This document shows, piece by piece, positions 1-20,517 of a DNA stretch of 28,204 bases. A model generated the notes under the pieces. The model saw nothing but the letters and a program-made list of their open reading frames with translations. It was not told where the DNA came from and searched no databases. The stretch comes from a phage. Within the stretch, counting starts at the first letter, position 1, and each line of letters starts with the position of its first letter. The stretch lies in NCBI GenBank assembly GCA_021454005.1, contig GCA_021454005.1_3939.2; one strand, given 5' to 3'. The position numbers and the translations under genes were made by a program.

Positions 1-191
1 AATTGATGGTTACAACTAACGTTAACACAAAGGTAAAACGTTTTTACATGCAAATTTGTGGCGTATGGTCTAGAATATCAGAATCTGACTATTGCAACTA
101 TGTAGAAACAGCTATAAACTCTAATTGCTACCTTACAAGAAATACTAAGAATTTTACAAGGCAAACAGCGATTTACTATTACGATAAATAA
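1..191 (+). CDS. hypothetical protein, 3' portion (may start upstream of the window)
   Basis: ORF in frame 3 ending TAA 189-191, immediately followed by a type-A cassette; no recognisable motif. Confidence 0.35.
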   Translation, partial: LMVTTNVNTKVKRFYMQICGVWSRISESDYCNYVETAINSNCYLTRNTKNFTRQTAIYYYDK

Positions 192-197
192 AAGTAC

Positions 198-280
198 TTT
201 ACATGGGGCTTATAGTTCGATAAAGTAAGCCCCAGATAAAGAGCTTTACCAAATTAACCCTTAAACTAGGAGATTCAAAA
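198..280 (+). promoter_or_regulatory. type-A leader cassette: TTTACA-N17-TAAAGT promoter-like hexamers enclosing hairpin GGGGCTTA/TAAGCCCC, then conserved SD (TAAACTAGGAGATTC..AAAATG)
   Basis: -35-like TTTACA 198-203, -10-like TAAAGT 221-226, inverted repeat 205-233, GGAG about 9 nt before ATG 281. Confidence 0.55.
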
Positions 281-664
281 ATGGCATATCGTGCACCTAA
301 ATTCATCAACAAAGACAACTTTCGCAACGCACTGGAGAAGTCACTTGATGAAAATTTTAAAGGCAACATTATCGTTGTTCACGCATTCAATTTTAAGTAT
401 GATGTAAACGGGAATAGAATCAACCATTACACGGCAACCATGTTAGATGGTACACTTTCAAGTGAAAAAGCCGTACTAAATGCACTGGCAGGACGTGGAA
501 AGGTATTAGTAAGATGTGATAAGAGACGTTATCAGGGCGGTGCATATGGTTATGATGATGCTGTTTACCATCTTGAAAATATGGGCTATCAAGTAGAAAA
601 AGCTGGAGCATCACAAATCATCGGCAGCGATGGTTATGTAACTATCTTCAAAATTAACAAATAA
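281..664 (+). CDS. hypothetical protein (127 aa)
   Basis: ORF with ATG directly after the conserved GGAG leader. Confidence 0.65.
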   Translation: MAYRAPKFINKDNFRNALEKSLDENFKGNIIVVHAFNFKYDVNGNRINHYTATMLDGTLSSEKAVLNALAGRGKVLVRCDKRRYQGGAYGYDDAVYHLENMGYQVEKAGASQIIGSDGYVTIFKINK

Positions 665-669
665 AGTAC

Positions 670-750
670 TTTACAAGGGGCTTATAGTTCGATAAAGTAA
701 GCCCCAGATAAAGAGCTTTACCACTCAATCCTAAATTGGAGAACTTAAAA
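670..750 (+). promoter_or_regulatory. type-A leader cassette (promoter-like hexamers + hairpin + SD)
   Basis: near-identical copy of the 198-280 cassette; TTTACA 670-675. Confidence 0.55.
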
Positions 751-1044
751 ATGGCTATTATCAAAAACGTTGTAATTACTGCAAAGACTCGTGATGACGC
801 TCGCGTTATGGCTAAAAAGTTATGCGGGAAAGTGGTTGACAATGGAAAACAATCTGCTGTAAGGTGGGGCGTGAAGGTTGATAAACAGTTGAAGTTAAAA
901 AATTCACCGATAAACCTTTTTACATGTGTAAACACTATCGGGAAGACAAATGTATACACGAAAAAGGCATACATTAGACGCGTAGCATTAACATCCCCCA
1001 TTCGTACAATGAGAAGTTATGCAAAGCTGAAAATTAACAAATAA
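751..1044 (+). CDS. hypothetical protein (97 aa)
   Basis: ATG at 751 preceded by GGAGAACTTAAAA; ORF-track start 736 lacks an SD. Confidence 0.6.
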   Translation: MAIIKNVVITAKTRDDARVMAKKLCGKVVDNGKQSAVRWGVKVDKQLKLKNSPINLFTCVNTIGKTNVYTKKAYIRRVALTSPIRTMRSYAKLKINK

Positions 1045-1049
1045 AGTAC

Positions 1050-1129
1050 TTTACAGGGGGCTTAAAAGCTGATACCTTAAGCCCCAGATAAAGAGCTTTA
1101 CCAATAAATCCTAAACTGGAGATTCAAAA
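1050..1129 (+). promoter_or_regulatory. type-A leader cassette, variant hairpin GGGGGCTTAA/TTAAGCCCC
   Basis: TTTACA 1050-1055; hairpin arms changed in a compensatory way. Confidence 0.5.
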
Positions 1130-1642
1130 ATGAAAACTGTAGACGCTACCTTTGAAGTTGTAAAAGAAAAATTCACTATTATTTATGAAGCTGTCAATTG
1201 CTTTGAAGCAAGCCATAATCTTGATAATTGGGAATTTACAGATGACCATCAAGGCGGTGTGACGATTAAAAATCCTAGCTGTCAGCGTAATGAATTTAAA
1301 TATGCAATCCCTTTACATTACAGCCTTAAACAGCTTTCAAGTGACTATGCAAAACAAGGCCGGGCAAATCCATCAAAAGAGGCTTACATCAGCTTACAGA
1401 AAGAACTAGAAAGAGATTTAGAGGCTTCAGAATATAACATTGCCGCGAAAGTTGTAGATGCAAATGGCAGCACTGTTTTAGAAAGTTTTTATATTGGTTA
1501 CGCTTTCGATTGGTGCTACAGTGACGGCGATGATTTAGAGGATAGACTAAAAGAAGAGGTGAACAACGCAGACGCAGAATCTGAAGTATTAGAACGTTTG
1601 GAATCGTTGAAAGACTCAGTGATGAATATCTTTAAGAACTAA
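1130..1642 (+). CDS. hypothetical acidic protein (170 aa)
   Basis: ORF after conserved leader; D/E-rich C-terminal half. Confidence 0.65.
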   Translation: MKTVDATFEVVKEKFTIIYEAVNCFEASHNLDNWEFTDDHQGGVTIKNPSCQRNEFKYAIPLHYSLKQLSSDYAKQGRANPSKEAYISLQKELERDLEASEYNIAAKVVDANGSTVLESFYIGYAFDWCYSDGDDLEDRLKEEVNNADAESEVLERLESLKDSVMNIFKN

Positions 1643-1651
1643 ATAGATTCC

Positions 1652-1734
1652 TTTACACGGGGTTATCAAGCTGGTAGGATAGCCCCAGATAAAGAGATTT
1701 ATCAAATAAAGCCCTTAAACTAGGAGATTCTAAA
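1652..1734 (+). promoter_or_regulatory. type-A leader cassette, variant hairpin GGGGTTATC/GATAGCCCC with -10-like TAGGAT at the conserved spacing
   Basis: TTTACA 1652-1657; hairpin arms co-vary relative to other copies. Confidence 0.5.
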
Positions 1735-2031
1735 ATGAAATTATCAAATAAAGTCCGTGAAAATTTAAGCAAGTTACTTAATAAAATTGATTTCATTGAA
1801 ACATCAAGAAATAGTCATGATGTTATGGAATGGTTACACGGAAAAATCAAAGGCCGTCGTGTAGTGATTTGCTTATGGAACAGTTGCAGGGAGTATAAAA
1901 AACCTGTATTGCAAGTCAATATTTATGATGATACTTTTAAAAGTCCTGTAAAATCTAAAAGCGATTTATTAGAATCCTATGAGATAACTGTAAATGGCAA
2001 AGTATCACGTAAAGAGGAAACACCATGTTAA
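1735..2031 (+). CDS. hypothetical protein (98 aa)
   Basis: ORF after conserved leader (GGAGATTCTAAAATG). Confidence 0.6.
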   Translation: MKLSNKVRENLSKLLNKIDFIETSRNSHDVMEWLHGKIKGRRVVICLWNSCREYKKPVLQVNIYDDTFKSPVKSKSDLLESYEITVNGKVSRKEETPC

Positions 2032-2357
2032 TGACTGGTATCACTGCAATCATTGCTATTTTCGCTCTATATAAGGCATATAAAGCCTATAATCTAGCAA
2101 ATAAGGCAACCACCCAGCAGGTTAGCAATAGCCTTGTAGAAAGCTTTCTAGGACGTTTAAGTGATGAGCAAATAAAGCGGCTAGAGATGAGCTTCAGATA
2201 TAAAGCGAAAACCTATCAGATAAGTGACATCTTCAAAGATAATTTTCAGTTAGTTGATGATTATAATTCTCTGATAAATGCTTTAAATGTCAGTGACTTA
2301 AAAGACTACTACGCTGTAATTGTTCAAGAATTGAGCAAACGAAAACAAAACTGTTGA
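2025..2357 (+). CDS. hypothetical small membrane protein (110 aa, N-terminal hydrophobic helix)
   Basis: ATG overlaps the upstream stop by 7 nt, GAGG upstream; N-terminus TGITAIIAIFALY is hydrophobic. Confidence 0.55.
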   Translation: MLMTGITAIIAIFALYKAYKAYNLANKATTQQVSNSLVESFLGRLSDEQIKRLEMSFRYKAKTYQISDIFKDNFQLVDDYNSLINALNVSDLKDYYAVIVQELSKRKQNC

Positions 2358-2446
2358 CACTGGTTTTTAGATAGATTAAATTACACATCAACGGGGAGGG
2401 AATGACCTTCCCCACTAAATAAAGTCCTAAACTGGAGATTCTGAAA
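2354..2446 (+). promoter_or_regulatory. type-B leader cassette: sigma70-like promoter TTGACA-N17-TAAATT, 5'UTR hairpin GGGGAGGG/CCTTCCCC, conserved SD
   Basis: TTGACA 2354-2359, TAAATT 2377-2382, G/C-rich inverted repeat, GGAG 9 nt before ATG 2447. Confidence 0.65.
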
Positions 2447-2605
2447 ATGTTTTGTGCAGGTGATAAAGTTGTCTGGAATGATATAGATGACGGTTTATGT
2501 ACGAAAGTTGTTGTTATCCTAGAAATTGATTATATCACTGGTGTTGCAACTGTAGCAGATAATGATATAATCTTTGATGTCTTAATTAGTGAACTGTCAA
2601 AATAA
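2447..2605 (+). CDS. hypothetical protein (52 aa; below the ORF-track size cutoff)
   Basis: ATG 2447 directly after conserved type-B leader; translated by hand to TAA 2603-2605. Confidence 0.5.
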   Translation: MFCAGDKVVWNDIDDGLCTKVVVILEIDYITGVATVADNDIIFDVLISELSK

Positions 2606-2630
2606 AACCCTTAAACTAGGAGCTTTTAAA

Positions 2631-2903
2631 ATGTACACTACTAACAATGGTCGCACCTTAAATGTCACCTTGCGTCACTATGTAGACGGTGTGATGTGCT
2701 TTGAAGATTTACGGGCTGAGCAACACATCTTAAATTGGCAAGTTGCAGGACTCCAAAAAACTGCTACAGGATACGGGAAAAAGATTCCAACCAGTTGGAA
2801 AGTATACTACGAAGGACGTTTACGCAGAATTTATCAAGATGTGCAAAGCAATAGCGCATCGAGTTACATTATAGTAAAAGGCAAAAAACTGCATTTAATG
2901 TAA
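2631..2903 (+). CDS. hypothetical protein (90 aa)
   Basis: ATG 2631 after CTTAAACTAGGAGCTTTTAAA; ORF-track start 2589 lacks an SD. Confidence 0.6.
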   Translation: MYTTNNGRTLNVTLRHYVDGVMCFEDLRAEQHILNWQVAGLQKTATGYGKKIPTSWKVYYEGRLRRIYQDVQSNSASSYIIVKGKKLHLM

Positions 2904-2908
2904 AGTAC

Positions 2909-2989
2909 TTTACAAGGGGCTTATAGTTCGATAAAGTAAGCCCCAGATAAAGAGCTTTACCACTAAATCCTAAATTGGAGAACTTAAAA
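2909..2989 (+). promoter_or_regulatory. type-A leader cassette (about 99% identical to 670-750)
   Basis: TTTACA 2909-2914; hairpin GGGGCTTA/TAAGCCCC. Confidence 0.55.
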
Positions 2990-3394
2990 ATGGCTATTAA
3001 TAACCGTGAATTATCAATTTTAAAAGCACGTTTGACCGTTAACCGGATTAATGTTATCACGTCATCAGCACCAGATGAAACACTGCAAAACATTATTGGG
3101 AAGATTCAAAGTGTTATCTTAGACGTTGAAAGCGTAAAAAACTCATTGACTGACGTTGCAGCAGGTATCACGCTAGACGGTGCACAACATGAAATGGCCG
3201 ACATGTTAGGCAAATCTAAGGTAATGAATAAAGAGTTAGATTTGAAAATGTTCCGATTTGCTGTTAAAGTGTGGTTATCTGTCGAGTATGATGCTAACTT
3301 TGCAATCGCTGACTTTTTCGCCACTTGGTTGCAGCGTAATTTGGCAAATCACGATTTCCGTAATATCTGCGATGCAATTTATGCAGAACTATAA
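2990..3394 (+). CDS. hypothetical protein (134 aa)
   Basis: ATG 2990 after conserved leader; ORF-track start 2975 lacks an SD. Confidence 0.6.
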   Translation: MAINNRELSILKARLTVNRINVITSSAPDETLQNIIGKIQSVILDVESVKNSLTDVAAGITLDGAQHEMADMLGKSKVMNKELDLKMFRFAVKVWLSVEYDANFAIADFFATWLQRNLANHDFRNICDAIYAEL

Positions 3395-3404
3395 AAAATT
3401 TTTG

Positions 3405-3497
3405 TTGACACTGGTTTTTAGATAGATTAAATTACACATCAACGGGGAGGGAATGACCTTCCCCACTAAATAAAGTCCTAAACTGGAGATTCTGAAA
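3405..3497 (+). promoter_or_regulatory. type-B leader cassette (100% identical to 2354-2446)
   Basis: TTGACA 3405-3410, TAAATT 3428-3433. Confidence 0.65.
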
Positions 3498-3701
3498 ATG
3501 GCTATTATTAATGGTTTAACCATTGAAACTACACACATCAAAGATATCAAAGTTGGTGATATAGTCCTTTCCCACGGCGTAGAAAAAACTGTCACTGCAA
3601 AGGATATCAAAGAGGATTCTTTCATGGGTAGGACTCTCTTCGGTGATTCTTATTGCTTAGGCTATCTTGCAGTTTTAAAAGTTGTCAAAAATAACAAATA
3701 A
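3498..3701 (+). CDS. hypothetical protein (67 aa)
   Basis: ORF after conserved leader. Confidence 0.55.
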   Translation: MAIINGLTIETTHIKDIKVGDIVLSHGVEKTVTAKDIKEDSFMGRTLFGDSYCLGYLAVLKVVKNNK

Positions 3702-3706
3702 AGTAC

Positions 3707-3787
3707 TTTACAAGGGGCTTAAAAGTTGATAACTTAAGCCTCAGATAAAGAGCTTTACCACTAAATCCTAAACTGGAGATTCTAAAA
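3707..3787 (+). promoter_or_regulatory. type-A leader cassette, variant hairpin GGGGCTTAA/TTAAGCCTC (G.U wobble)
   Basis: TTTACA 3707-3712; arms pair only with a G.U wobble. Confidence 0.5.
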
Positions 3788-4330
3788 ATGAAATGTTATC
3801 ACGGAACTACTCAAGAAAATTTCCTCAACCTGATTAATAACGGTGATAAACCATCAGGCGCATGGAATTGTTCGGATATGGACGGCAATTTTTACGTGTA
3901 TCCAGAAAATAAAATCTATGGCGACGATGATGAAGAGATAACATCGGAGGGCATTCAGCAAGCTCTAGGGAACGCCACTATTACGGCGGCCTTCCAGATG
4001 AAAACCCAAAATATTGTTATCTTAGAACTCGATATTCCAGATGATGAGCTAAATGATGATTATTCTTGTGATAATATGTCGAGTGTAGCAAGTTTTACAG
4101 AGTACTTTGATGTAAACTGGATTAAAAAGGTCTATACAACAGAGTTTAACGCTATGTATTCGCCTTTTTGTCTTCCTTCACTGGATAACCCAAATATGAA
4201 CTATCTTGATGAGACATTAGAACTACTTGCTAAAAGTGTTCAACAGTCGGACAGTATTCAGGTTTTTTGTGACATCATAGATACACTGACAGGAAACATT
4301 GCAGAAGAGGATTTAAAGAGCTTTTTCTAA
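3788..4330 (+). CDS. hypothetical strongly acidic protein (180 aa)
   Basis: ORF after conserved leader; runs of D/E (GDDDEE, DIPDDELNDDY). Confidence 0.65.
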   Translation: MKCYHGTTQENFLNLINNGDKPSGAWNCSDMDGNFYVYPENKIYGDDDEEITSEGIQQALGNATITAAFQMKTQNIVILELDIPDDELNDDYSCDNMSSVASFTEYFDVNWIKKVYTTEFNAMYSPFCLPSLDNPNMNYLDETLELLAKSVQQSDSIQVFCDIIDTLTGNIAEEDLKSFF

Positions 4331-4362
4331 AAACCTATGCAATCACCTTATAAACACTAATC

Positions 4363-4382
4363 AGCCCCTTGTAGGGGCTTTT
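4363..4382 (+). terminator. intrinsic terminator-like hairpin AGCCCCT-TGT-AGGGGCT followed by TTTT
   Basis: perfect 7-bp inverted repeat plus T-run, 33 nt after stop 4330. Confidence 0.55.
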
Positions 4383-4396
4383 AGAGGGCTTAAATC

Positions 4397-4630
4397 ATGC
4401 TTACAACCGTTTATCTCATCCTCTCAATTTGTAATGGTCATTCATGCGATTTTAAAGGGCTTGAAGAGTTTACAGGAAGTAAAGAAAATGCTATTCAAGT
4501 TTGCCAGATAGCAAGACAAGACTATCCCGCCAGTGATGATATACAATGTTACTTTAAGACAGAAGATGAAGACGGTATCTATTTTGACAGCGTAGATGGT
4601 CAGTATGAAATTATCATTGAAAAAGACTAG
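4397..4630 (+). CDS. hypothetical protein (77 aa)
   Basis: ORF with AGAGGG 7 nt upstream of ATG; lacks the conserved leader. Confidence 0.5.
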   Translation: MLTTVYLILSICNGHSCDFKGLEEFTGSKENAIQVCQIARQDYPASDDIQCYFKTEDEDGIYFDSVDGQYEIIIEKD

Positions 4631-4722
4631 ACAAGCCTGATAAAAATCTGTAAATTGTCAATCAACGGGGAGGGAACGACCTTACCCACTAAGTACAATC
4701 CTTAAACTAGGAGATTCAAAAA
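4628..4722 (+). promoter_or_regulatory. type-B leader cassette (TAGACA-N17-TAAATT, hairpin, SD)
   Basis: -35-like TAGACA 4628-4633 overlaps stop codon TAG of the upstream gene; TAAATT 4651-4656. Confidence 0.55.
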
Positions 4723-5064
4723 ATGGCTTATGTAACCGTAATTACCGATAAAGCTGGCGCATCTTGGTCAACTCAAGTAAGTGATAAGATGTCACCTATG
4801 CAGTGCCTAAAATACTTTGAACAGTGGAACAAAGGCGAGGACACAAGCCCCTTTCAAGTGATGCAGATTATCCATGTAGATAATGAAGGGAATAAAACGG
4901 TTTTAAATAGTGAGTACTACGCAAGCCGTTTTGAAACGAGAAGTAAAACAATGAAGCTTTTACGTGAATCCGGTTATGCCCATATCGCCGCGTTAATCTG
5001 GGATGACCTGCTAAAAAACCAACGTATCAGCTATGTAAAACCTGAAAAAATATTCATCAGTTAA
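4723..5064 (+). CDS. hypothetical protein (113 aa)
   Basis: ORF after conserved leader. Confidence 0.6.
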   Translation: MAYVTVITDKAGASWSTQVSDKMSPMQCLKYFEQWNKGEDTSPFQVMQIIHVDNEGNKTVLNSEYYASRFETRSKTMKLLRESGYAHIAALIWDDLLKNQRISYVKPEKIFIS

Positions 5065-5096
5065 TCAATAACTTACAAAAAACTTTTAAAAAAATG

Positions 5097-5125
5097 TTGA
5101 CAATACCCCTTGACATTGGTAACTT
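5097..5125 (+). promoter_or_regulatory. sigma70-like promoter TTGACA-N17-TAACTT with no gene immediately downstream
   Basis: TTGACA 5097-5102, second TTGACA inside the spacer, followed by a C4/G5 inverted repeat. Confidence 0.4.
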
Positions 5126-5193
5126 TGTTCGAGGGGGTTTATCTAAAAGGGATTCACTTAAAAGATTCTTTATAGATAAGCTCAAAAAATTAC

Positions 5194-5284
5194 TTGCAAT
5201 CAACTATCAAAACAAGTAAATTACTAATCAACGGGAAGGCAATAACCTCCCCACTAAATAAAGTCCTAAACTGGAGATTCTAAA
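5194..5284 (+). promoter_or_regulatory. type-B leader cassette (TTGCAA-N17-TAAATT, hairpin, SD)
   Basis: TTGCAA 5194-5199, TAAATT 5217-5222. Confidence 0.55.
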
Positions 5285-5815
5285 ATGAACAAATTTCAAG
5301 CTATCAACTTCATTCGTTCAAATGCTGTAATGTCTAAGCCTGTAAAAGATACATACGAATTCCGTTGTAATGGGGTACATTTCGCAACAATCACCAAATC
5401 AGAAAACGGGGCTTATTACGTTCATCGTCGTAATGTTTCAACCGTTGTAGTCTCTCACTTTATGCAAGCTGTAGCGGAATTATTACCGTTATTCTTAGAG
5501 ATTTACTTAGATGAGTGTAAAAACGTTCACAACCACGTTAAAAGCCTTTTAAACGGTTATAAAATGGCTTATGAACGCTCTATCAAGTCCTTAAACAAGT
5601 TTTACAATGCACCTGCAAACACTGTTTCAATGGCTTATGATGTAAACGGTGAGTTAGTTAGTCTCTTTAAAGTGGAAGAAATTAAACTGTATAATCTACG
5701 TCCTAGTGGTTACTCTAAGACTCTTGGTGAAGGTTTAACGTTCAATATCAAGAACTTAGAAAAAACTTTAAAAGATATTGAAAAAGATATTGACGAGACA
5801 ATAAAAAGTCTGTAA
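5285..5815 (+). CDS. hypothetical protein (176 aa)
   Basis: ORF after conserved leader. Confidence 0.65.
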   Translation: MNKFQAINFIRSNAVMSKPVKDTYEFRCNGVHFATITKSENGAYYVHRRNVSTVVVSHFMQAVAELLPLFLEIYLDECKNVHNHVKSLLNGYKMAYERSIKSLNKFYNAPANTVSMAYDVNGELVSLFKVEEIKLYNLRPSGYSKTLGEGLTFNIKNLEKTLKDIEKDIDETIKSL

Positions 5816-5881
5816 ATTGTCAATCAACGGGGAGGGAATGACCTTCCCCACTAAATAAAGTCCTAAACTGGAGTTATCAAG
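5790..5881 (+). promoter_or_regulatory. type-B leader cassette (TTGACG-N17-TAAATT); -10 overlaps stop codon of the upstream gene
   Basis: TTGACG 5790-5795, TAAATT 5813-5818 (TAA 5813-5815 is the stop of CDS 5285-5815). Confidence 0.6.
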
Positions 5882-6145
5882 ATGGAAAACGTAGAATTAA
5901 CCACACTTTTACAAATTGCAACTGACAAAGAAGATGTAGCACTGTTTCACCGTATCGAAAGCGATTTATTCAATGGTGAAATCATCAAAGAATCTTATGA
6001 AGTTGTCGGATTCAAAGATGGTAAAGCGTTTGGCTTTTTTGACCTCGACAAAGGCAACGCTGTCACAAAGTATGATGTTGTATCTTGTGAGATTCTTACA
6101 AAATACAACGAAAAAAGGCTTGCAACATACGCCAATATGCAGTAA
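5882..6145 (+). CDS. hypothetical protein (87 aa)
   Basis: ORF after conserved leader. Confidence 0.55.
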   Translation: MENVELTTLLQIATDKEDVALFHRIESDLFNGEIIKESYEVVGFKDGKAFGFFDLDKGNAVTKYDVVSCEILTKYNEKRLATYANMQ

Positions 6146-6211
6146 ATTACTAATCAACGGGAGGTGATAACCTCCCCACTAAATAAAACCCTTAAACTAG
6201 GAGATTCTAAA
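6120..6211 (+). promoter_or_regulatory. type-B leader cassette (TTGCAA-N17-TAAATT, hairpin GGGAGG/CCTCCC, SD)
   Basis: TTGCAA 6120-6125, TAAATT 6143-6148 overlapping stop TAA 6143-6145. Confidence 0.55.
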
Positions 6212-6460
6212 ATGGCAACTATCCGCGCTACTGTCAATGCCTATGGCTGTTATACTCTGGACGTTAAATTCGATATTGGTGGAACTGATGAGTGTTTTTC
6301 ATTAGTGAAGACAGTTATCAAACAAGTTATTCCAGATTATAACCCTACTGATGACTTCTGGAAAGATGCTGTAAAAGAGGCATTAAACGACGAGCATCAC
6401 TATCATTACTGGGGTGACTTGATTGTTTCCCTGTACTACAATAAACAAGGTTACAACTAA
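6212..6460 (+). CDS. hypothetical protein (82 aa)
   Basis: ATG 6212 after conserved leader; ORF-track start 6164 lies inside the leader hairpin. Confidence 0.55.
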   Translation: MATIRATVNAYGCYTLDVKFDIGGTDECFSLVKTVIKQVIPDYNPTDDFWKDAVKEALNDEHHYHYWGDLIVSLYYNKQGYN

Positions 6461-6498
6461 TCGACGCAGCGGGGCTAAATAGCCCCAGATACCTGAAC

Positions 6499-6523
6499 AG
6501 CCCCTATTTAAAGGGGCTTTTTA
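6499..6523 (+). terminator. intrinsic terminator AGCCCCT-ATTTAA-AGGGGCT-TTTTT ending the plus-strand small-gene array
   Basis: 7-bp perfect inverted repeat followed by T5; preceded by a second hairpin GGGGCT-AAAT-AGCCCC at 6470-6485. Confidence 0.7.
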
Positions 6524-6892
6524 CGTCTATCGAATCCTTATACAATCTCTTTCCATCACCTTTCCAGAATCTTCCCACTGATTCGATAGAACCTATCTCA
6601 TACCTTAAAAGCAATAACTCTATAGTCTACGCTATAACCTCTTATCAAATCAACTTAAATATAAGCCCATAACCCGAAAGGGAAGGGCAACCGTTTAAAC
6701 GCTCTATAAAGCTCTATAACAGCCTTATCAACCTAACTTAAGGGATTGCATTAACTCACCCTTAAAAGCCCTTTATAAAGCTTCTCAGAGACTTAAAAGA
6801 ATCTTATAAGGGTGTAAGCTTTATTATCTCGTTAGCTATCTTGTGAACTACTAAACAAGCCCCTTGATAGTAACTGAAAAGTATGTTATAGG

Positions 6893-6933
6893 GGCTATAA
6901 AGTTACGTAAAAGAGGCTATAAAGTTACGTAAA
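6893..6933. repeat. tandem direct repeat GGCTATAAAGTTACGTAAA x2 (22-bp period)
   Basis: identical 19-mers at 6893-6911 and 6915-6933. Confidence 0.8.
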
Positions 6934-7324
6934 TGCTAGCCCCCTTAACATCCTTTTAACAATTTCTTAACAATCCCTACATAGTTATGCTTTTAAGGCA
7001 CTTGTTAGCAACTTGTTAGCCCCTTGTTAAATCTCTGTTAAGACCACGTAAAAGCCTTGTAAGAGTCTTTGACATAGCCTTAAAAGCTCCTGTAAAGCCC
7101 TATAAAGAGCTATCTGTACATTTGGGGTGTAACTACTAGGAAGAGACTTAAAAGGGGCTATAAAGAGCTATAGAGAGCTTTTAAGAGGTATGTTTAAAGA
7201 ATCACTAAGAGGGAAAGGGAACGATAAGAAAAGAAGTAGTGACCATGTTAATAGCTTGTTAAAAAGATTAAACACTTGTTAGAAACTTGTTAATTATCTT
7301 AACAAAATAACTCTTTAAAATTAA

Positions 7325-7478
7325 CTTGTTAGCTCTTGTTAGTCATCTGTTAAGATTCTGTAAAGCCTATTCAGCACTTGTTAAGAAACTGTTAAAGCCT
7401 TGTTAGTTCTGTTAAGAATCTGTTAAGACCTTTGAAGAGTTGTTAAGAAGATGTGAGAACTGTTAAGAGATTGTTAAG
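7325..7478. repeat. array of at least 12 direct iterons (C)TTGTTA(A)G / CTGTTAAG at about 10-12 bp spacing
   Basis: copies start at about 7325, 7335, 7347, 7358, 7377, 7389, 7399, 7410, 7420, 7439, 7460, 7471; more copies at 7001-7045 and 7258-7300, some inverted. Confidence 0.75.
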
Positions 7479-8092
7479 GATATTTTAAAATTTTGCAAAG
7501 GGGATGTTACAGGGATGTTAAGGGCTACCAAGCAGATATACATCCTAGACAGATATTTTTCAGTTCCTTCAAAAACCCTAAAAAATGACTTGATAGTCCT
7601 ATTTTATAAAAATTTTAAAATTCTGAATAATTACCTAGACAGCCTTTTAAAAATACAGGTAATAACAGGCTTATAAGATACCTTGTTAGTACCGTGTTAG
7701 ACCTTGTGAGATAAGGTCTGTGAAGATATTCCTGTTAAGTTTGTTAAAACAGTCTATATAGAGGCTTAGTAATACCTAGTGAACACCTATAGAGGGTATC
7801 ATAGCTGACATAGAGATTAAGAGGTGTATAGGAGCTTCTAAGAGGGTATAGAGAGATAGTTAAGGTGATTGTATAGGTTGTTAAGAAGGCTTGTTAGAAG
7901 AGTGTTTAGATGGCTATTTAGAAGGGCTATACAGAGGGCTATTAAGACCACTAGATAGTTACTAAGATACTATATAGTACTATATAACTATATAGAGAGT
8001 AAGATTAAGAAGGTTGTTAAGAAGGATAGATATTTTGTTCACATATGATGGTGACCCAGAGGTTGGGACAACCGATAAAATTTTATAAAAGT

Positions 8093-8117
8093 AAAAAGCC
8101 CCCAATTAAGGAGGCTC
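8093..8117 (-). terminator. intrinsic terminator for the minus-strand operon (AGCCTCC-TTAATT-GGGGGCT + T5 as read on the minus strand)
   Basis: inverted repeat 8098-8116 followed on the minus strand by a U-run (A-run 8093-8097 on plus), 11 nt past stop 8128. Confidence 0.55.
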
Positions 8118-8127
8118 TTAAGATATT

Positions 8128-8676
8128 TTAAATCAGTGTTTCCAGAACTGTTTTTAGTGATGACTTGGTTGTCTGATAAAAATGAGTAAAGCCATTGTTG
8201 TTATCAAATACCTGCATCATGATATCATCTCCCTTGATTGGGTACACTCGGATATCATAGTGAAAACCATTAAAGACACAAGAACCACTACAGAATGTAC
8301 TAAAGTCAGCCACTGAGATATACTCTTCATGTCCTGTGATTTTTATACAAACACCTTTACTCGGTCTCTTAGGATTGATATCTTGCATCACAGACATACT
8401 CTGTCCACCAAGAGATACCATAGTGACCACTTTACGGTTCTTCTGTCTAAAGTACATCTTAACTTTCTGCAAAGTGTCTTCATAGAATGGATAAGACCTT
8501 TCTACAAAGATTCCTTCAAGTGGCTCTTTACCATTTTCAACTTCTCTGTTATGCCGTACTGCAAAGATAATTTGTTCGAACCAGTCAAGATTTTCTTCGG
8601 AGAGTGCTTCCCGAACATCCTTCCAGTCAAGTACTAAGTAGTTACCTTCAACTTCTTTTAAGTTATCTTTTTCCAT
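8128..8676 (-). CDS. hypothetical protein (182 aa from the internal ATG; the ORF extends to 8751)
   Basis: long minus-strand ORF; ATG 8751 has its GAGG abutting the start codon and overlaps the upstream gene by 62 nt, so Met26 at 8676 is preferred. Confidence 0.5.
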   Translation of the reverse strand: MEKDNLKEVEGNYLVLDWKDVREALSEENLDWFEQIIFAVRHNREVENGKEPLEGIFVERSYPFYEDTLQKVKMYFRQKNRKVVTMVSLGGQSMSVMQDINPKRPSKGVCIKITGHEEYISVADFSTFCSGSCVFNGFHYDIRVYPIKGDDIMMQVFDNNNGFTHFYQTTKSSLKTVLETLI

Positions 8677-9850: not shown

Positions 9851-9925
9851 TTTTAGTTTCTCCATAAGCATCTTTCAAGATTGCCTTGTTAATCATTTCA
9901 GCGATTGCAAAACGAACACATACAG

Positions 9926-10429
9926 CTATAATTGTAGGTTGCATTCTTTACTTACCTCTTCAAGTTTAATCTCAGAGTCCTTAAGTCGTTTCTTATGAAC
10001 TCTGAATCTTATTAGTGAGATGATGATACCAGCTAAAGGAACAGCATACAAGTACCAAACATCATGTACCTTTGCAGTAATCTGTGTGATAGTTAAATCT
10101 TGAGCTATGTAACTGATTGCTGATACGGCTAGTAATGTTGCTAAGAAGAAAACCAGTATCATAGCAATATTCAGACAACCTCTGGCATGGTATTCATGCT
10201 TAATGCACTTATTCTTCTCTTCAACAACCCTGTTGTAGTCGTTTGTAAAGTCTCTGTAGAAAGCTTTTAAGTATTCTTGAGTGTAGCCTTCAAAGCAACC
10301 TGTGCCGTACCAATAATCACCACCAAAGTGTGCTATGATACCGGTATCCCCATTTGGTTTGGTTACTCTCAAAGAGGTGTGATGACGAGTATCCTGATAA
10401 TCTATCTTATATCTTTCTTCGTAAATCAT
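9926..10429 (-). CDS. hypothetical membrane protein (167 aa, two predicted TM helices in the C-terminal half)
   Basis: GAGGG 8 nt upstream of ATG; hydrophobic segments IAMILVFFLATLLAVSAISYI and LYAVPLAGIIISLI. Confidence 0.55.
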   Translation of the reverse strand: MIYEERYKIDYQDTRHHTSLRVTKPNGDTGIIAHFGGDYWYGTGCFEGYTQEYLKAFYRDFTNDYNRVVEEKNKCIKHEYHARGCLNIAMILVFFLATLLAVSAISYIAQDLTITQITAKVHDVWYLYAVPLAGIIISLIRFRVHKKRLKDSEIKLEEVSKECNLQL

Positions 10430-10727: not shown

Positions 10728-11309
10728 TCAAGAGTATTTTTTAGGCAGTAATGCGCTACGTTTGTTACTCTCTTCACTCAATAGTGCGATAAATTCGTCG
10801 CCTTTACCTTTCCACGGGCTGAATGAAGGGATATGTTCGCGGATAGCCTCAATCACTGTTTTAAGTGCTGTGTTCTTCATCCACCAATCAGAATCTGCTG
10901 ATGCTACCACGTAGTATCCACCGTCATCAGTTAAAATTGGCTCTGAAATACATGGTGAAATCAAAGTGGTGATGATTGAGCCGTTGTTCATGTAGTATGT
11001 GCGCTTCATAACCTTTTCAAGAAGCTTGTGAAGGTCACCAAACAGTGTTACAAGTTCTTTGTGGTCGATGTCTTTTTCGAGGCTTGCTCGGTACTTCAAT
11101 AGTGCAGCATCAACCTCTCTGTCATTAAACTTGAAATATTGAACTTCATCAACAAGGCAAACACTGATATTGTTGACATTCATAGTCAACTTACAGACTT
11201 TTGCAGGAGAATTGATACTTGGTTGAAAAAGTGCAACACAACCTTCAATGTTCCCAAAATGTTGTACTAGTGTTACTTGTGGGGTAATATTCTGTTGCTC
11301 TTCGGACAT
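10728..11309 (-). CDS. hypothetical protein (193 aa)
   Basis: GAGGA 7 nt upstream of ATG; ATG shares its A with the upstream stop TAA (ATG 11309-11307, TAA 11311-11309). Confidence 0.6.
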   Translation of the reverse strand: MSEEQQNITPQVTLVQHFGNIEGCVALFQPSINSPAKVCKLTMNVNNISVCLVDEVQYFKFNDREVDAALLKYRASLEKDIDHKELVTLFGDLHKLLEKVMKRTYYMNNGSIITTLISPCISEPILTDDGGYYVVASADSDWWMKNTALKTVIEAIREHIPSFSPWKGKGDEFIALLSEESNKRSALLPKKYS

Positions 11310-17784: not shown

Positions 17785-17861
17785 CTCTGTTTAGCTCAGC
17801 TTGGTAGAGCGTTCCGTTTGGGGCGGTAAGGCCGGAGGTTCAAGTCCTCCAACAGAGACCA
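17785..17861 (+). tRNA. tRNA-Pro (anticodon TGG)
   Basis: hand-folded cloverleaf: acceptor CTCTGTT/AACAGAG, anticodon loop TTTGGGG, T arm GGAGG-TTCAAGT-CCTCC, CCA encoded. Confidence 0.7.
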
Positions 17862-17868
17862 AATTAAT

Positions 17869-17946
17869 GTTCCAGTAGACAAAATGGTAAAGTCACCACT
17901 CTTTCAAAGTGGATATCTGAGGGTTCAAATCCCTTCTGGAACGCCA
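17869..17946 (+). tRNA. tRNA-Glu (anticodon TTC)
   Basis: acceptor GTTCCAG/CTGGAAC, anticodon stem CCACT/AGTGG, loop CTTTCAA, T-loop TTCAAAT, CCA encoded. Confidence 0.75.
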
Positions 17947-17953
17947 GTTTTGA

Positions 17954-18025
17954 CAGAAGACCAATTACAGCAAGCTTAATCTACTCATCTGACACGAAAT
18001 CGGACAAAGAAGATATTTGGTCTGG
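17954..18025 (+). ncRNA. spacer element copy 1: CAGAAGACCAA..TACAGCAAG...TTGGTCTGG (terminal 7-bp stem AGACCAA/TTGGTCT)
   Basis: conserved ends and covarying stem shared with copies at 18120, 18507, 18594. Confidence 0.5.
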
Positions 18026-18036
18026 TCATTGAGAAT

Positions 18037-18113
18037 TGCGGGTATAGAGAAAGGGCGTCTCACATGTCTCATTAGCATGGTATCGGCAGGTTCGACTCCT
18101 GCACCCGCCTCCA
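18037..18113 (+). tRNA. tRNA-Met (anticodon CAT)
   Basis: acceptor (T)GCGGGT/ACCCGC(C) with one unpaired position, anticodon stem CATGT/GCATG, loop CTCATTA, T arm GCAGG-TTCGACT-CCTGC, CCA encoded. Confidence 0.6.
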
Positions 18114-18119
18114 ATTTTG

Positions 18120-18179
18120 CAGAAGACCGTATTCAGCAACAAAATACTTTTTGCGGATAAAAGAAAAAACACGGTCTGG
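18120..18179 (+). ncRNA. spacer element copy 2: CAGAAGACCGT..TTCAGCAAC...ACGGTCTGG (stem AGACCGT/ACGGTCT)
   Basis: same architecture as copy 1 with a compensatory change in the stem. Confidence 0.5.
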
Positions 18180-18190
18180 CAATGTATTAA

Positions 18191-18267
18191 GGTTAGGAAG
18201 CACATAAGGTATGTGCGGTCGCCTGTTAAGCGAATGGCACAGGGTTCGAATCCCTGACTAACCGCCA
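18191..18267 (+). tRNA. tRNA-Asn (anticodon GTT)
   Basis: acceptor GGTTAGG/ACTAACC (one mismatch at 7-66), D stem GCAC/GTGC, loop CTGTTAA, T arm CAGGG-TTCGAAT-CCCTG, CCA encoded. Confidence 0.65.
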
Positions 18268-18275
18268 AATTAAAT

Positions 18276-18363
18276 GTGTCGTTATCCCGTAGATGGTAGC
18301 GGTGGGGACTGTAAATCCCTTGTCATTGAGACTCGGTAGGTTCGACTCCTACACGGCACACCA
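18276..18363 (+). tRNA. tRNA-Tyr (anticodon GTA), long variable arm
   Basis: acceptor GTGTCGT/ACGGCAC, loop CTGTAAA, variable stem GTC-ATTGA-GAC, T arm GTAGG-TTCGACT-CCTAC, CCA encoded. Confidence 0.7.
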
Positions 18364-18368
18364 ATAAA

Positions 18369-18445
18369 GGCTATGTAGTTTAACTGGAGAAAATACTCCC
18401 CTGTCACGGGAGATGATGTGAGTTCAAGTCTCATCGTAGCCGCCA
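18369..18445 (+). tRNA. tRNA-Asp (anticodon GTC)
   Basis: acceptor GGCTATG/CGTAGCC, anticodon stem CTCCC/GGGAG, loop CTGTCAC, T-loop TTCAAGT, CCA encoded. Confidence 0.75.
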
Positions 18446-18506
18446 ATTTTGAGAGGGCTATTTAGCCCCTCCCTTAAAGAGTTCTTACGAGTATTCTTTA
18501 AAGGAG

Positions 18507-18580
18507 CAGAAGACCAAATACAGCAAGAATGTATGAAATTTCAAGCCAATTTAATTTTGAAAATTTAAAACTTGGTCTGG
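18507..18580 (+). ncRNA. spacer element copy 3: CAGAAGACCAA..TACAGCAAG...TTGGTCTGG
   Basis: same architecture; stem AGACCAA/TTGGTCT. Confidence 0.5.
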
Positions 18581-18593
18581 CTCAACAAATTTA

Positions 18594-18725
18594 CAGAAGA
18601 CCGTTTACAGCAAAACTTAAACAATCTATTTCTCCGGTAAAGAAAAGGCGAAGGTTCGATTCCTTCACTCGGCAGATGTCGAGTTGGTGTAATGGTAGCA
18701 CTTAAGATGATAAACAACGGTCTGG
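18594..18725 (+). ncRNA. spacer element copy 4 (long form) with terminal stem AGACCGTT/AACGGTCT, containing tRNA-half-like hairpins
   Basis: CAGAAGACCGTTTACAGCAAA at the 5' end and AACGGTCTGG at the 3' end; interior carries a T-arm-like hairpin, an acceptor-like hairpin and a D-arm-like hairpin. Confidence 0.45.
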
Positions 18726-18726
18726 T

Positions 18727-18870
18727 AATTATCTTTGTAGATAAGTTATTAAGCTTACATGTGAGTATGCGACCACAAAGGGTGAAAGGGTAAATTCTAG
18801 ATTTAAACCCAAAAAGGCACATCGCTACAGACCTTAAGCAAGTCTGGGTAGCTTATCTACAAAGATAATT
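18727..18870. repeat. 19-bp perfect inverted repeat (AATTATCTTTGTAGATAAG / CTTATCTACAAAGATAATT) flanking 106 nt
   Basis: arms at 18727-18745 and 18852-18870; could be a long-stem RNA or a miniature inverted-repeat element. Confidence 0.6.
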
Positions 18871-18874
18871 TAAT

Positions 18875-18950
18875 GGAAGTGTAGCAGAATGGTGATGCGG
18901 CAGACTTTTAATCTGACAGGCGATGGGTTCGAATCCCTCCACTTCTACCA
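18875..18950 (+). tRNA. tRNA-Lys (anticodon TTT)
   Basis: acceptor GGAAGTG/CACTTCT (G1.U72), loop CTTTTAA, T-loop TTCGAAT, CCA encoded; close paralog of the tRNA at 20101. Confidence 0.65.
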
Positions 18951-18954
18951 ATAT

Positions 18955-19031
18955 GGTTCAGTCGCAGATAAGGTAATGCAAGGGTCTCATAAGCCCTATG
19001 AATGTGGGTTCGATTCCCATCTGAACCTCCA
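18955..19031 (+). tRNA. tRNA with anticodon CAT (Met, initiator, or Ile2/lysidine type)
   Basis: acceptor GGTTCAG/CTGAACC, anticodon stem AGGGT/GCCCT (three G-C pairs), loop CTCATAA, T arm GTGGG-TTCGATT-CCCAT, CCA encoded. Confidence 0.65.
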
Positions 19032-19032
19032 A

Positions 19033-19108
19033 GCTGGTATAGTTAAGAAGGTTATAACACTCCCCTGATAAGGGAACATCGGTGGTTCGATTCCACCTAC
19101 CAGTACCA
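19033..19108 (+). tRNA. tRNA-Ile (anticodon GAT)
   Basis: acceptor GCTGGTA/TACCAGT, D stem GTTA/TAAC, loop CTGATAA, T arm GGTGG-TTCGATT-CCACC, CCA encoded. Confidence 0.7.
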
Positions 19109-19123
19109 ATTTCAATAAAGTTG

Positions 19124-19152
19124 TTGACATTGAGATGTGACTACTTTATAGT
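19124..19152 (+). promoter_or_regulatory. sigma70-like promoter TTGACA-N17-TATAGT inside the tRNA array
   Basis: hexamers at 19124-19129 and 19147-19152; about 200 nt of unassigned sequence follows before the next tRNA. Confidence 0.6.
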
Positions 19153-19355
19153 AACCTTAGTTTTCGTTGCGTAGCGTCTATTTTGCAAATTTAAAATAAA
19201 TGCAAACGACAATGTTTTTCTGGCAGTAGCTTGATAGGCTAAACACCAGTGAGGTCTTCCAATCCCTCATCAAAGAATTTGGCGTACTAGCCCACGGTAT
19301 GATTAATAAGGTGGGCATCTTTAAGGGCTTTCTAAGAGAGTCTTTAAAGATTAAT

Positions 19356-19432
19356 GCACCCTTAGTTCAATTGGATAGAGCAACGGTCTTCTAAATCGTT
19401 AGTTACAGGTTCGAATCCTGTAGGGTGTGCCA
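19356..19432 (+). tRNA. tRNA-Arg (anticodon TCT)
   Basis: acceptor GCACCCT/AGGGTGT, D arm GTTC-AATTGGATA-GAGC, anticodon stem ACGGT/ATCGT, loop CTTCTAA, T arm ACAGG-TTCGAAT-CCTGT, CCA encoded. Confidence 0.75.
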
Positions 19433-19450
19433 ATTAGTTAGCAGATTACT

Positions 19451-19490
19451 TAGACGACCTAAGCGGGTCTTCCTGTAGGGAGGTGGTCTG
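19451..19490 (+). ncRNA. possible degenerate fifth copy of the AGACC...GGTCTG spacer element
   Basis: TAGACGACC...GGTGGTCTG with 6 of 7 stem positions pairing; weaker match. Confidence 0.25.
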
Positions 19491-19574
19491 TATCTCATGT
19501 TTTCCAGAACATGTAAATAATCTGAGAAGGGGCTTTACAGTGTTGAGATAATACGGTAAGCTTCGAATTACAGT

Positions 19575-19657
19575 ATGGGACGATGTTAAGACTCTAAGGC
19601 ATGAGCAACGGCCTCCAAAACCGTTTCAAAGGGGTTCAACTCCTCCGTCCCATGCCA
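19575..19657 (+). tRNA. tRNA-Trp (anticodon CCA), atypical (about 7 extra nt between acceptor stem and D arm)
   Basis: acceptor ATGGGAC/GTCCCAT (7 of 7), anticodon stem ACGGC/ACCGT with loop CTCCAAA, T arm AGGGG-TTCAACT-CCTCC, CCA encoded; D region does not fold canonically by hand. Confidence 0.5.
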
Positions 19658-19670
19658 AAGTCTTATTAGG

Positions 19671-19758
19671 GGTAGGTAGCGGCTAATGGTAGCCAAACTG
19701 TCTTGAAAACAGTTGCCACTGTAGAGATACGGTGAGGGTTCGACTCCTTTACTTACCG
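19671..19758 (+). tRNA. tRNA-Ser (anticodon TGA), long variable arm
   Basis: acceptor GGTAGGT/ACTTACC, anticodon stem ACTGT/ACAGT, loop CTTGAAA, long variable arm, T-loop TTCGACT; CCA not fully encoded. Confidence 0.7.
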
Positions 19759-19914
19759 CCTAATAAGATTTACACCGTCCATGCTTGCTCGCATTTTCGG
19801 TTTATCCCTCGTGTATTGTCGTACACTGATAAAGCACCTAGTAGGTGTCACGGAGAAGAGATAATATCAAGCTCTCCAAAGGTTCTAGTCACCGGATTAA
19901 ACAAGACTATGCAA

Positions 19915-19935
19915 AGACCTATTTAGGTCTTTTTA
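19915..19935 (+). terminator. intrinsic terminator AGACCT-ATTT-AGGTCT-TTTTT within the tRNA array
   Basis: perfect 6-bp inverted repeat plus T5. Confidence 0.6.
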
Positions 19936-20014
19936 GAGGGCTTCTAAGGTTATTAGTCGCTTGTTGTGGAACCTTGTTGCTCAGGTTCTTAGAAGTTCTC
20001 TAAAAAGATTTAAT

Positions 20015-20093
20015 GGGAGATTGACGGCAACTTGGTAGACCTATCTCGCTTAGAACGAGATGCTTGAGGGTTCGAATCCCTTGTCTCCTACCA
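20015..20093 (+). tRNA. tRNA with anticodon TAG (Leu by the standard code) but a short variable arm
   Basis: acceptor GGGAGAT/GTCTCCT, anticodon stem (A)TCTCG/CGAGA(T), loop CTTAGAA, variable region about 4 nt, T arm GAGGG-TTCGAAT-CCCTT, A73, CCA encoded. Confidence 0.55.
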
Positions 20094-20100
20094 AATTAAT

Positions 20101-20176
20101 GCAGGTGTAGCAAAATGGTTATGCGGCTGACTCTTAATCAGTAAGACGATGGGTTCAATTCCCTCCACCTGTACCA
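20101..20176 (+). tRNA. tRNA-Lys (anticodon CTT)
   Basis: acceptor GCAGGTG/CACCTGT, anticodon stem GCTGA/TCAGT, loop CTCTTAA, T-loop TTCAATT, CCA encoded. Confidence 0.65.
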
Positions 20177-20182
20177 GACATT

Positions 20183-20258: not shown

Positions 20259-20264
20259 ATTAGT

Positions 20265-20339: not shown

Positions 20340-20346
20340 AATTAAT

Positions 20347-20422: not shown

Positions 20423-20517
20423 ATTCAGAGGTCAAGTGAAAGACCGCTGGTGTCAACTGAAGACCGTAACAAATTCCACGGAGTTGAGTTAGCGGCACAA
20501 CTTCAGACCTCTTTCAT

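Follow-up and report, generated by a model that had tools for sequence, protein, structure and literature searches.

Why should the small early genes of a phage be separated by long and almost identical repeats, and what do such repeats do to the genes lying between them? The question is raised by a stretch of phage DNA of 28,204 nucleotides (NCBI GenBank assembly GCA_021454005.1, contig GCA_021454005.1_3939.2; hereafter the window), in which two pairs of repeats of nearly 100 bp, A/A' and B/B', are interleaved with each other. We assign the window to Felixounavirus (Felix O1-like phages, Ounavirinae), as judged from its first 8 kb, which finds matches in 261 phage records, almost all of them Felixounavirus, the best collinear relative being Escherichia phage finno (91%). 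It is highly probable that the repeats are portable regulatory cassettes which serve as homology for general recombination in the early region of Felixounavirus, and most likely their primary role is regulatory, with recombination as a consequence. Our analysis covers cassette anatomy, copy distribution, the breakpoints of natural variants, the stability and conservation of hairpins, concerted evolution and the swapping of cassette types, from which promoter activity, the role of the hairpins, a circular intermediate and the recombination enzymes are inferred. The repeats as such were already listed in 2010 and the mechanism has been described for T4-type phages, while the natural occurrence of the predicted junctions, the evidence for concerted evolution and Escherichia phage vB_EcoM_DE7 (DE7 below) as a candidate product of excision and re-integration are what is added here.

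On the + strand the four copies follow each other in the order A (662), B (2352), A' (2901) and B' (3403), with a spacing of 2239 bp from A to A' and of 1051 bp from B to B'. The repeat finder gives 99 nt and 99% identity for the A pair (662-760 and 2901-2999), the sole difference being C726 against A2965, and 98 nt and 100% identity for the B pair (2352-2449 and 3403-3500). The initial annotation had described the same picture, namely the interleaved order, an A pair of about 99 bp with one differing position and an identical B pair, for which it gave 97 bp, one base less than is found here. It was also right that the genes behind the A copies (751-1044 and 2990-3394) both begin with MAI and otherwise differ, as BLASTP returned no alignment between the two proteins; with this empty result an ancient duplication of gene and cassette together is unsupported. 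The A copies contain ATGGCTATTA, and the B'-led gene 3498-3701 starts with MAII, so that the shared ATGGCTATTA or MAI start is not specific to type A. In fact each pair consists of the most similar members of its own six-copy cassette family. The type-A core CCCCAGATAAAGAG has six + strand matches within 190-3800 against 0.12 expected in the window, and the type-B core TAAATTNNNNATCAACGGG has six against 0.07, numbers which exclude chance as the source of the repeats; a seventh type-A match, with 2 mismatches, lies at 20748 in the tRNA region.

All 12 cassettes lie on the + strand within 190-6221, and each precedes one small early gene. They measure 71-97 nt and take up the space between genes entirely, with the upstream stop codon at or inside their 5' edge, followed by a sigma-70-type promoter, a GGGG...CCCC hairpin, a Shine-Dalgarno sequence and the ATG; in all copies AAACTGGAG, AAATTGGAG or AAACTAGGAG stands 8-10 nt upstream of the ATG. 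In type A, the stop TAA is followed by the -35 hexamer TTTACA, a 17-nt spacer, the -10 hexamer TAAAGT and then an invariant CAGATAAAGAG before the Shine-Dalgarno sequence and ATG, and an inverted repeat GGGGCTTAT/GTAAGCCCC encloses both the spacer and the -10. The type-A RNA forms a longer imperfect hairpin, whose outer stem TAAAGTACTTTA/TAAAGAGCTTTA includes the stop codon and the -35. For example in the copy A (662-750, counted as A2 among the six), the TAA lies at 662-664, the -35 at 670-675, the -10 at 693-698, the inner stem at 677-685/697-705, the outer stem at 662-673/708-720, the Shine-Dalgarno GGAG at about 738-741 and the ATG at 751, and the fold has -24.2 kcal/mol with a z of -4.95. 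In type B, the -35 TTGACA, a 17-nt spacer and the -10 TAAATT are followed after 10 nt by the hairpin GGGGAGGG-AATGA-CCTTCCCC, the Shine-Dalgarno sequence and the ATG. In the copy B (B1, 2352-2446), the -35 at 2354-2359 overlaps the TGA stop of gene 2025-2357, the -10 lies at 2377-2382, the hairpin at 2393-2413 (-17.9 kcal/mol), GGAG at 2434-2437 and the ATG at 2447. The promoter-like hexamers of both types match 9-10 of the 12 consensus positions, their activity being a prediction, and an AT-rich tract stands upstream of the -35 in the A copies (AACAAATAAAGTAC) and in B2 (TAAAAAATTTTTG). In B1, B4, B5 and B6 the upstream coding sequence extends over the -35, and in B5 and B6 the upstream TAA stop falls within the -10.

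The conservation of these parts was studied for type A on 26 distinct variants from the window and 18 relatives. Invariant are the -35 hexamer, the G/C stem, the CAGATAAAG box and positions 1, 2 and 6 of the -10; that these three alone are fixed inside an otherwise variable loop is the pattern expected of a working promoter. Each cassette is thought to start the transcription of its next gene; in the type-A copies the starts are predicted near 706 and 2945, in the type-B copies near 2390 and 3441. The type-A folds reach -21 to -27 kcal/mol, with z of -2.5 to -5 against shuffles, and the type-B hairpin about -18 kcal/mol; the hairpins beat shuffled sequence in most copies, two type-B copies being weaker. 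Stem pairing is kept in 94.8% of cells, which modestly supports a selected structure. Since the type-A hairpin would form only in transcripts that read through from upstream, it is a candidate attenuator or 3'-end structure, while the type-B hairpin may in addition stabilise the 5' end of the mRNA, whose predicted position is 3-4 nt away; the hairpins may thus attenuate or terminate transcription that reads through, or protect mRNA ends. The depositors of ASO1A, a close relative, annotate the type-B element as a promoter plus a rho-independent terminator predicted by WebGeSTer. We do not assert an intrinsic-terminator function, as the pattern scan was negative. No Rfam family matches the cassettes, the single hit in the window being a chance-level Phe_leader at 8089-8149.

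If the repeats serve as homology, exchange between the two copies of a pair should delete or duplicate the genes between them, as the initial annotation had proposed, and for deletion both junctions indeed exist in public genomes. In LF110P1, the sequence is 99.4% identical to window 1-2449 and then resumes at 3403, the two alignments overlapping by a single 98-bp B cassette, with 99.6% over the junction, precisely the structure that a B x B' deletion should leave. A query with this junction also finds LF82P1 (97.3%) and the divergent Salmonella phage SUT_S820 (89.3%), in total three of 251 records, all of which miss the block 2447-3394 between B and B' (genes 2447-2605, 2631-2903 and 2990-3394) as a unit. 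The A x A' junction is found in DE7, where gene w281 (genes of relatives are cited by the start of their window counterpart) is joined to w2990 through a single A cassette (window ~758 to 2901-2999).

Moreover, the comparison of gene content across relatives, in which the homologous regions of 21 relatives were aligned to window 1-8200, revealed a broadly kept gene order with variable gene content, and nearly all discontinuities fall in cassettes; an outcome of the same content with divergent cassettes was not found among them. Felix O1 has lost genes 281-664 and 751-1044 at a 283|1043 junction and genes 3498-3701, 3788-4330 and 4397-4630 at a 3503|4661 junction; LNA1 has lost 751-1044 and 1130-1642 (765|1637); in six relatives gene 1130-1642 is lost or replaced (1135|1643 and 1134|1716); and gene 5882-6145 is lost in Felix O1, UAB_Phi87, REP5 and DE7 (5873|6142). 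The 52-codon gene 2447-2605 is missing in 10 of the 21 relatives by a 2450|2600 junction and in an eleventh, REP5, by 2449|2602. Its loss uses a 34-bp Shine-Dalgarno homology (2416-2450/2600-2634) that has no hairpin, the linker at 2600-2630 sharing only the 3' third of the cassettes. In ASO1A and LF82P1 the homology breaks at 3696|3791, where ASO1A annotates an extra gene of 246 nt. Altogether 22 of the 28 distinct breakpoints lie inside cassettes, which cover 20.5% of the region (binomial 7e-11), and two further ones are at most 3 nt from a cassette interval.

The similarity within the pairs also behaves as exchange would predict. The mean edit distance between A2 and A5 (the copies A and A') is 5.2 within genomes against 7.6 between genomes (permutation p of about 2e-4, 14 genomes), and for B1 and B2 (B and B') it is 20.3 against 24.5 (p of about 4e-4, 16 genomes), p-values which are approximate since the genomes are phylogenetically non-independent. 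Of the other pairs, three of type A reach marginal values (p 0.02-0.04) and the rest show no significant effect, those involving B4 being not computable and left out. The B promoter has two alleles (TTGACACTGG... and TTGATTTTGG...), in which B1 and B2 agree in 12 of the 16 genomes, and in finno a private variant, GAGTAAATT...GGGGCGGG, is common to both. As a genome's own A' is closer to its A than the A' of other genomes, mere conservation does not fit the similarity of A/A' and B/B', and the near-identity seen in the window is a recurring and actively maintained state, kept up by gene conversion or by repeated excision and insertion.

The cassettes are exchanged between types too, as the initial annotation had suspected from the different genes behind the A copies. 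In front of the w281 gene family, 10 genomes have a type-A cassette, six have a type-B-like one (TTGACT-N17-TA[GA]TAT, then GCATCAACGGGGAGGG...) and a seventh has a degenerate one, so that the two types are interchangeable before the same gene. The window itself is a mosaic, 99-100% LF110P1-like at 1-2400 and at about 4800-6900 and 100% like ASO1A/ULIM9 from cassette B1 to about 4350. In the metagenomic Felixounavirus contig IMGVR_UViG_3300045988_004931 from IMG/VR (reverse complement of 3370-3716), about 290 extra bp stand between B2 and w3498, which is led there by a type-A and not a type-B cassette, that is, a cassette-bounded insertion together with a type swap. In Escherichia phage fjerdesal, the B-type hairpin upstream of the w281 homologue is replaced by GGGGGGGGGGGGAAATGCCGGACCCC with a run of 12 G, which is either a homopolymer sequencing error or a real degenerate cassette.

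DE7 merits a closer description, since the block that is missing between its w281 and w2990 is not lost. It sits 2.3 kb downstream between w4723 and w5285, at the site of cassette B4, in the order window 2600-2999, then 662-932 ... 2012-2449, and is thus circularly permuted. Its middle contains the reciprocal junction w2631-A-w751, found in one piece with 94% coverage and in no other record, and its flanks are two B cassettes with 78 exact bp in common, including a private variant GGAATGGCC; the two A copies of DE7, one at the deletion junction and one inside the block, have 81 exact bp in common. As far as its order goes, DE7 is a candidate for the product expected if an A x A' circle re-entered through its own B cassette at B4. 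Within the moved block, at 7908-8210 of the DE7 record, w751 is present as a 258-nt allele that runs in frame into the final 47 nt of w1130, and w1735 is reduced to its 3' end, which holds the ribosome site for w2025.

Several points weigh against taking the repeats as homology for recombination, and those which concern DE7 belong to a more general doubt. With its interleaved exact repeats of 78-81 bp, the order of DE7 is also an exact alternative A, B, A, B traversal of an assembly graph, and being unique among about 290 records it may be a misassembly; moreover its two deletions, the w751/w1130 fusion and the loss of most of w1735, are not cassette-mediated. These in-gene deletions, however, could not be created by the confusion or collapse of repeats, which speaks against misassembly. 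A perfect tandem duplication of 2 x 127 bp in Escherichia phage Barry (4017-4271), covering the last ~50 nt of the w2631 gene and most of the A' cassette, is either a product of slippage or unequal exchange at the cassette or an assembly artefact. That the structural variants or the near-identity as a whole are short-read assembly artefacts from repeats of about 100 bp is nevertheless most improbable, for the repeat pairs recur in genomes from many laboratories, among them Felix O1, which was obtained by Sanger sequencing (PMC3185647), the B x B' deletion stands in three records of at least two sources at 89-99.6% identity, the presence or absence of single genes at cassettes is seen in most relatives, and repeats of 78-98 bp are spanned by typical reads.

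A further point concerns the breakpoints. As there is no intergenic space outside the cassettes, selection against the disruption of genes would alone suffice to enrich breakpoints there, and this argument is shared by the explanation that the repeats are regulatory only, with near-identity due to purifying selection and with indels arising by unrelated mechanisms and surviving only between genes. The invariant positions of the -35, the -10 and the Shine-Dalgarno sequence agree with such an explanation, as do the DE7 deletions that do not involve cassettes. We consider it unlikely, because the junctions are single hybrid cassettes free of scars, which is a stronger argument than breakpoint enrichment, and because lineage variants without evident function, such as the finno variant, are common to both members of a pair. 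Moreover, the two alleles of the -35 and spacer are concordant in most genomes as described above, and strong concerted evolution is limited to A2/A5 and B1/B2, where uniform selection predicts otherwise.

The remaining points against recombining cassettes are of different kinds. The duplication half of the proposal made in the initial annotation did not appear, as neither block was found duplicated in tandem by junction queries: with the B'-to-B query, all matches were in two pieces about 1.15 kb across, as in the normal arrangement, and with the A'-to-A query DE7 was the only match. Scans of IMG/VR for the exact A x A' and B x B' junction patterns returned nothing, a negative that says little as the normal A-w751 control pattern was itself found in only about 10 contigs. 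The covariation of the stem is modest, with both-sided changes at 2 pairs; the cassette hairpins are not called terminators by a simple pattern scan, because no U-tract follows the stems; and the promoter, terminator and circle formation in this phage are predictions.

How then would the exchange proceed? In the mechanism we propose, each cassette would supply the stop-codon context, a host sigma-70-type early promoter, a G/C-rich stem-loop, the Shine-Dalgarno sequence and the ATG of the next gene, and about a dozen copies of 60-100% identity in one orientation within 6 kb offer homology for general recombination, which may take place during replication or co-infection. Within one genome, exchange between two copies would delete the intervening genes, and the excised segment would presumably be a circle with one hybrid cassette, able to re-enter at any other cassette; exchange between genomes would lead to allele swaps and to gene gain or loss, and gene conversion would keep certain pairs, A/A' and B/B', nearly identical. 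Owing to the interleaved order A, B, A', B', excision through one family leaves a cassette of the other on the segment, by which it may re-enter elsewhere. The exchanges are probably made by general homologous recombination, since the crossover zones vary by event and match the longest exact identities, and no recombinase was found among the ten genes scanned nearby (281-4330). It is conceivable, though we hold it only tentatively, that the two families amount to a recombinase-free transposition of genes, out as a circle by A x A' and back into the same or a co-infecting genome by B x B, of which DE7 would be a fossil of the full cycle, and that cassette shuffling of this type, known from the promoter-early stem-loop (PeSL) cassettes of T4-type phages, either has independent origins in unrelated lineages of virulent phages or has passed from one such lineage to another.

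A circle bearing genes also recalls integrons, in which attC hairpins and the IntI integrase move gene cassettes as units via circular intermediates. The likeness lies in small promoter-served genes that would be excised and inserted via circles at structured repeat sites, and an integron-like system, that is, a dedicated phage or host recombinase acting on the GGGG...CCCC hairpin and producing gene circles, would account for the G/C hairpin conserved in every cassette and for the relocated, circularly permuted block of DE7; the same speculation was made for PeSLs by Arbiol et al. (PMC2839356). Yet the crossovers lie in differing parts of the cassettes, including the hairpin-free Shine-Dalgarno region by which the 52-codon gene is lost, the exchange tracts coincide with the longest exact identity (78-98 bp), as for homology-dependent exchange, and no recombinase or integrase-like family was hit among the ten genes scanned (281-4330), for which reasons such a system is very unlikely here. 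Site-specific recombination of any kind was set aside as unlikely on the same grounds, varying crossover zones and no recombinase among the genes scanned. Unlike integrons, the Felixounavirus region thus has spread exchange points and a promoter of its own in each cassette, and no integrase was found in these ten genes. The morons and linker sequences of the modular theory are likewise single genes with their own transcription signals that are gained or lost, and conserved intergenic linkers as exchange points; for morons the presumed route is illegitimate recombination, with no conserved flanks (discussion in PMC2839356), whereas in Felixounavirus the flanks are the conserved element.

The PeSLs, of the T4-type phages RB49/phi1, PST/T4 and nt-1/KVP40, are described as ~100-bp motifs reaching from stop codon to ATG and clustered among ORFans in hyperplastic regions, which bound indels between close relatives and give rise to mini-circles detected by inverse PCR; their architecture and behaviour are thereby shown experimentally in T4-type phages, while re-insertion is only proposed in the passages cited, next to the reported circles and indels (Arbiol et al. 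2010, PMC2839356; Comeau et al. 2014, PMC4122927). Going by these descriptions, PeSLs and Felixounavirus cassettes have in common the sigma-70-like early promoter, the GGGG...CCCC stem-loop, the Shine-Dalgarno sequence and the ATG, many copies in the same orientation among small genes of unknown function, a plastic region with indels bounded by the motif, and proposed circular intermediates carrying one hybrid cassette. In fact, of the features by which PeSLs are recognised, the cassettes of the window show the span from stop to ATG, the sigma-70-like promoter (16-18 nt spacing), the G/C stem-loop, Shine-Dalgarno sequence and ATG, the clustering of many copies in a plastic region and the indels bounded by motifs, and some copies only show the AT-rich upstream tract. 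The stem-loop of PeSLs, as described, lies between -35 and -10, overlaps the -10 or follows downstream, to be compared with type A, where it encloses the spacer and the -10, and type B, where it begins 10 nt after the -10. PeSLs are described by a loose consensus, whereas Felixounavirus has two discrete and highly conserved sequence families, of which type A is set apart further by its longer imperfect palindrome including the stop codon and the -35.

The taxonomic scope of PeSLs, the T4-like myoviruses, does not extend to the window, since the Ounavirinae, with genomes of about 87 kb and terminal repeats, are a lineage unrelated to the T4-like phages; a membership in PeSLs hence rests on architecture and behaviour, not on descent. 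To our knowledge there is no sequence relationship between PeSLs and Felixounavirus cassettes, and our literature search found no paper applying the PeSL concept to Felix O1-like phages. What DE7 offers in addition is a candidate natural product of re-integration, a step which for PeSLs is only proposed in the sections cited (PMC2839356; PMC4122927). The Felix O1 genome paper (Whichard et al. 2010, PMC3185647) gives a 57-bp repeat CTTTACATGGGGCTTAAAAGTCTGTAAAGTAAGCCCCAGATAAAGAGCTTTACCACT between genes 15/16 and 19/20 and a 39-bp repeat TTGACACTGGTTTTTAGATAGATTAAATTACACATCAAC between genes 18/19 and 20/21, which are the same elements in the same interleaved A, B, A', B' order; the paper lists the repeats only, with no promoter call, hairpins, wider families or recombination role (PMC3185647).

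The other members of the two families complete the picture of the region, all on the + strand. Among type A, A1 (190-280) precedes gene 281-664, belongs to repeat families D1 and D8, has TTTACA-17-TAAAGT at 198-226 and folds with -26.6 kcal/mol (z -4.95). A3 (1042-1129) precedes gene 1130-1642, with breakpoints of relatives at 1043 and 1134/1135, and A4 (1643-1734), with the variant stem GGGGTTATC/GATAGCCCC, precedes gene 1735-2031, with breakpoints at 1637/1643 and 1716. The copy A' is A5 (2901-2989), before gene 2990-3394 and 99% identical to 662-760, and A6 (3699-3787) precedes gene 3788-4330. Among type B, the copy B' is B2 (3403-3497), before gene 3498-3701 and 100% identical to 2352-2449; B3 (4626-4722) precedes gene 4723-5064 and has breakpoints at 4661, 4703 and 4716; B4 (5191-5284), where the relocated block of DE7 sits, precedes gene 5285-5815; B5 (5788-5881) precedes gene 5882-6145, with its promoter inside the 3' end of gene 5285-5815 and the stop TAA as part of its -10; and B6 (6141-6211) precedes gene 6212-6460. 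The linker (2600-2630), which has the Shine-Dalgarno part only (AAATAAAACCCTTAAACTAGGAG...), precedes gene 2631-2903, is the junction for the loss of gene 2447-2605 and belongs to repeat family D10. The small early genes between A and B (751-2357) are 751-1044, 1130-1642, 1735-2031 and 2025-2357. Three unrelated genes ending at 648-664, 1030-1044 and 3685-3701, each followed by a type-A cassette, have near-identical last codons, AAAATTAACAAATAA (...KINK*) in two and AAAAATAACAAATAA (...KNNK*) in one, so that the cassette homology runs 14-17 nt into the upstream coding sequence and the cassette seems to donate C-terminal residues to the gene upstream.

The cassette region as a whole is an early block of small genes transcribed rightward. 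Of the ten genes scanned (281-4330), nine have hits exclusively to PHROG families of unknown function and the tenth has none. Across the subfamily, type A occurs at 1345 places in 288 records, including phages of Erwinia, Hafnia and Citrobacter, and type B at 1128 places in 251 records; all of these 250-290 matching records are assigned to the Ounavirinae, that is, to Felixounavirus and its Erwinia, Hafnia and Citrobacter relatives. A stretch at 132605-132913 of Staphylococcus phage SA1 (GU169904.1, 147 kb) is 93% identical to the Felixounavirus early region and one Campylobacter-labelled record matches too; both are probably chimeric or contaminated records.

Felix O1-like phages are in wide use for typing of Salmonella and E. 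coli, for biocontrol and for therapy, and the differences among isolates are greatest in the early-gene block, whose probable function is to take over the host. Modules which carry their own promoter and recombine at cassettes would explain the patterns of gene presence and absence in hundreds of genomes, and they predict an instability of production stocks at defined junctions. In practice, the interleaved repeats of 78-99 bp may mislead short-read assemblies, and the cassettes are ready-made sites for the insertion or removal of genes by homologous recombination. More generally, the PeSL concept would then reach past the T4-like phages, a hint that large virulent phages have a general solution in regulatory cassettes that double as recombination linkers.

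Outside the cassettes the window offers a few more observations. Six records (NBEco004, GE_vB_7A, vB_EcoM_E9, Pr103Blw, SeKF_63 and I14.1) begin or end exactly at window 7527-7529, and Pr103Blw has a short direct terminal repeat annotated there, so a physical genome end probably lies at about 7527-7529, in which case the two genome ends are joined within the window and transcription of the cassette-rich early block runs toward the terminus. The segment 6500-8100 (about 1.6 kb), which separates the rightward early block from leftward genes starting at 8128, contains no open reading frame of at least 60 amino acids on either strand; relatives annotate short repeat_regions in its counterpart, for example finno at 9910-9938 and 10833-10867, and identity to relatives across it is patchy (82-100%). 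For Felix O1, 22 tRNA genes have been counted (PMC3185647). In the window, 26 tRNA genes are clustered on the + strand at 17785-22927, and the repeat families D3-D13 are accounted for by tRNA T-arms.

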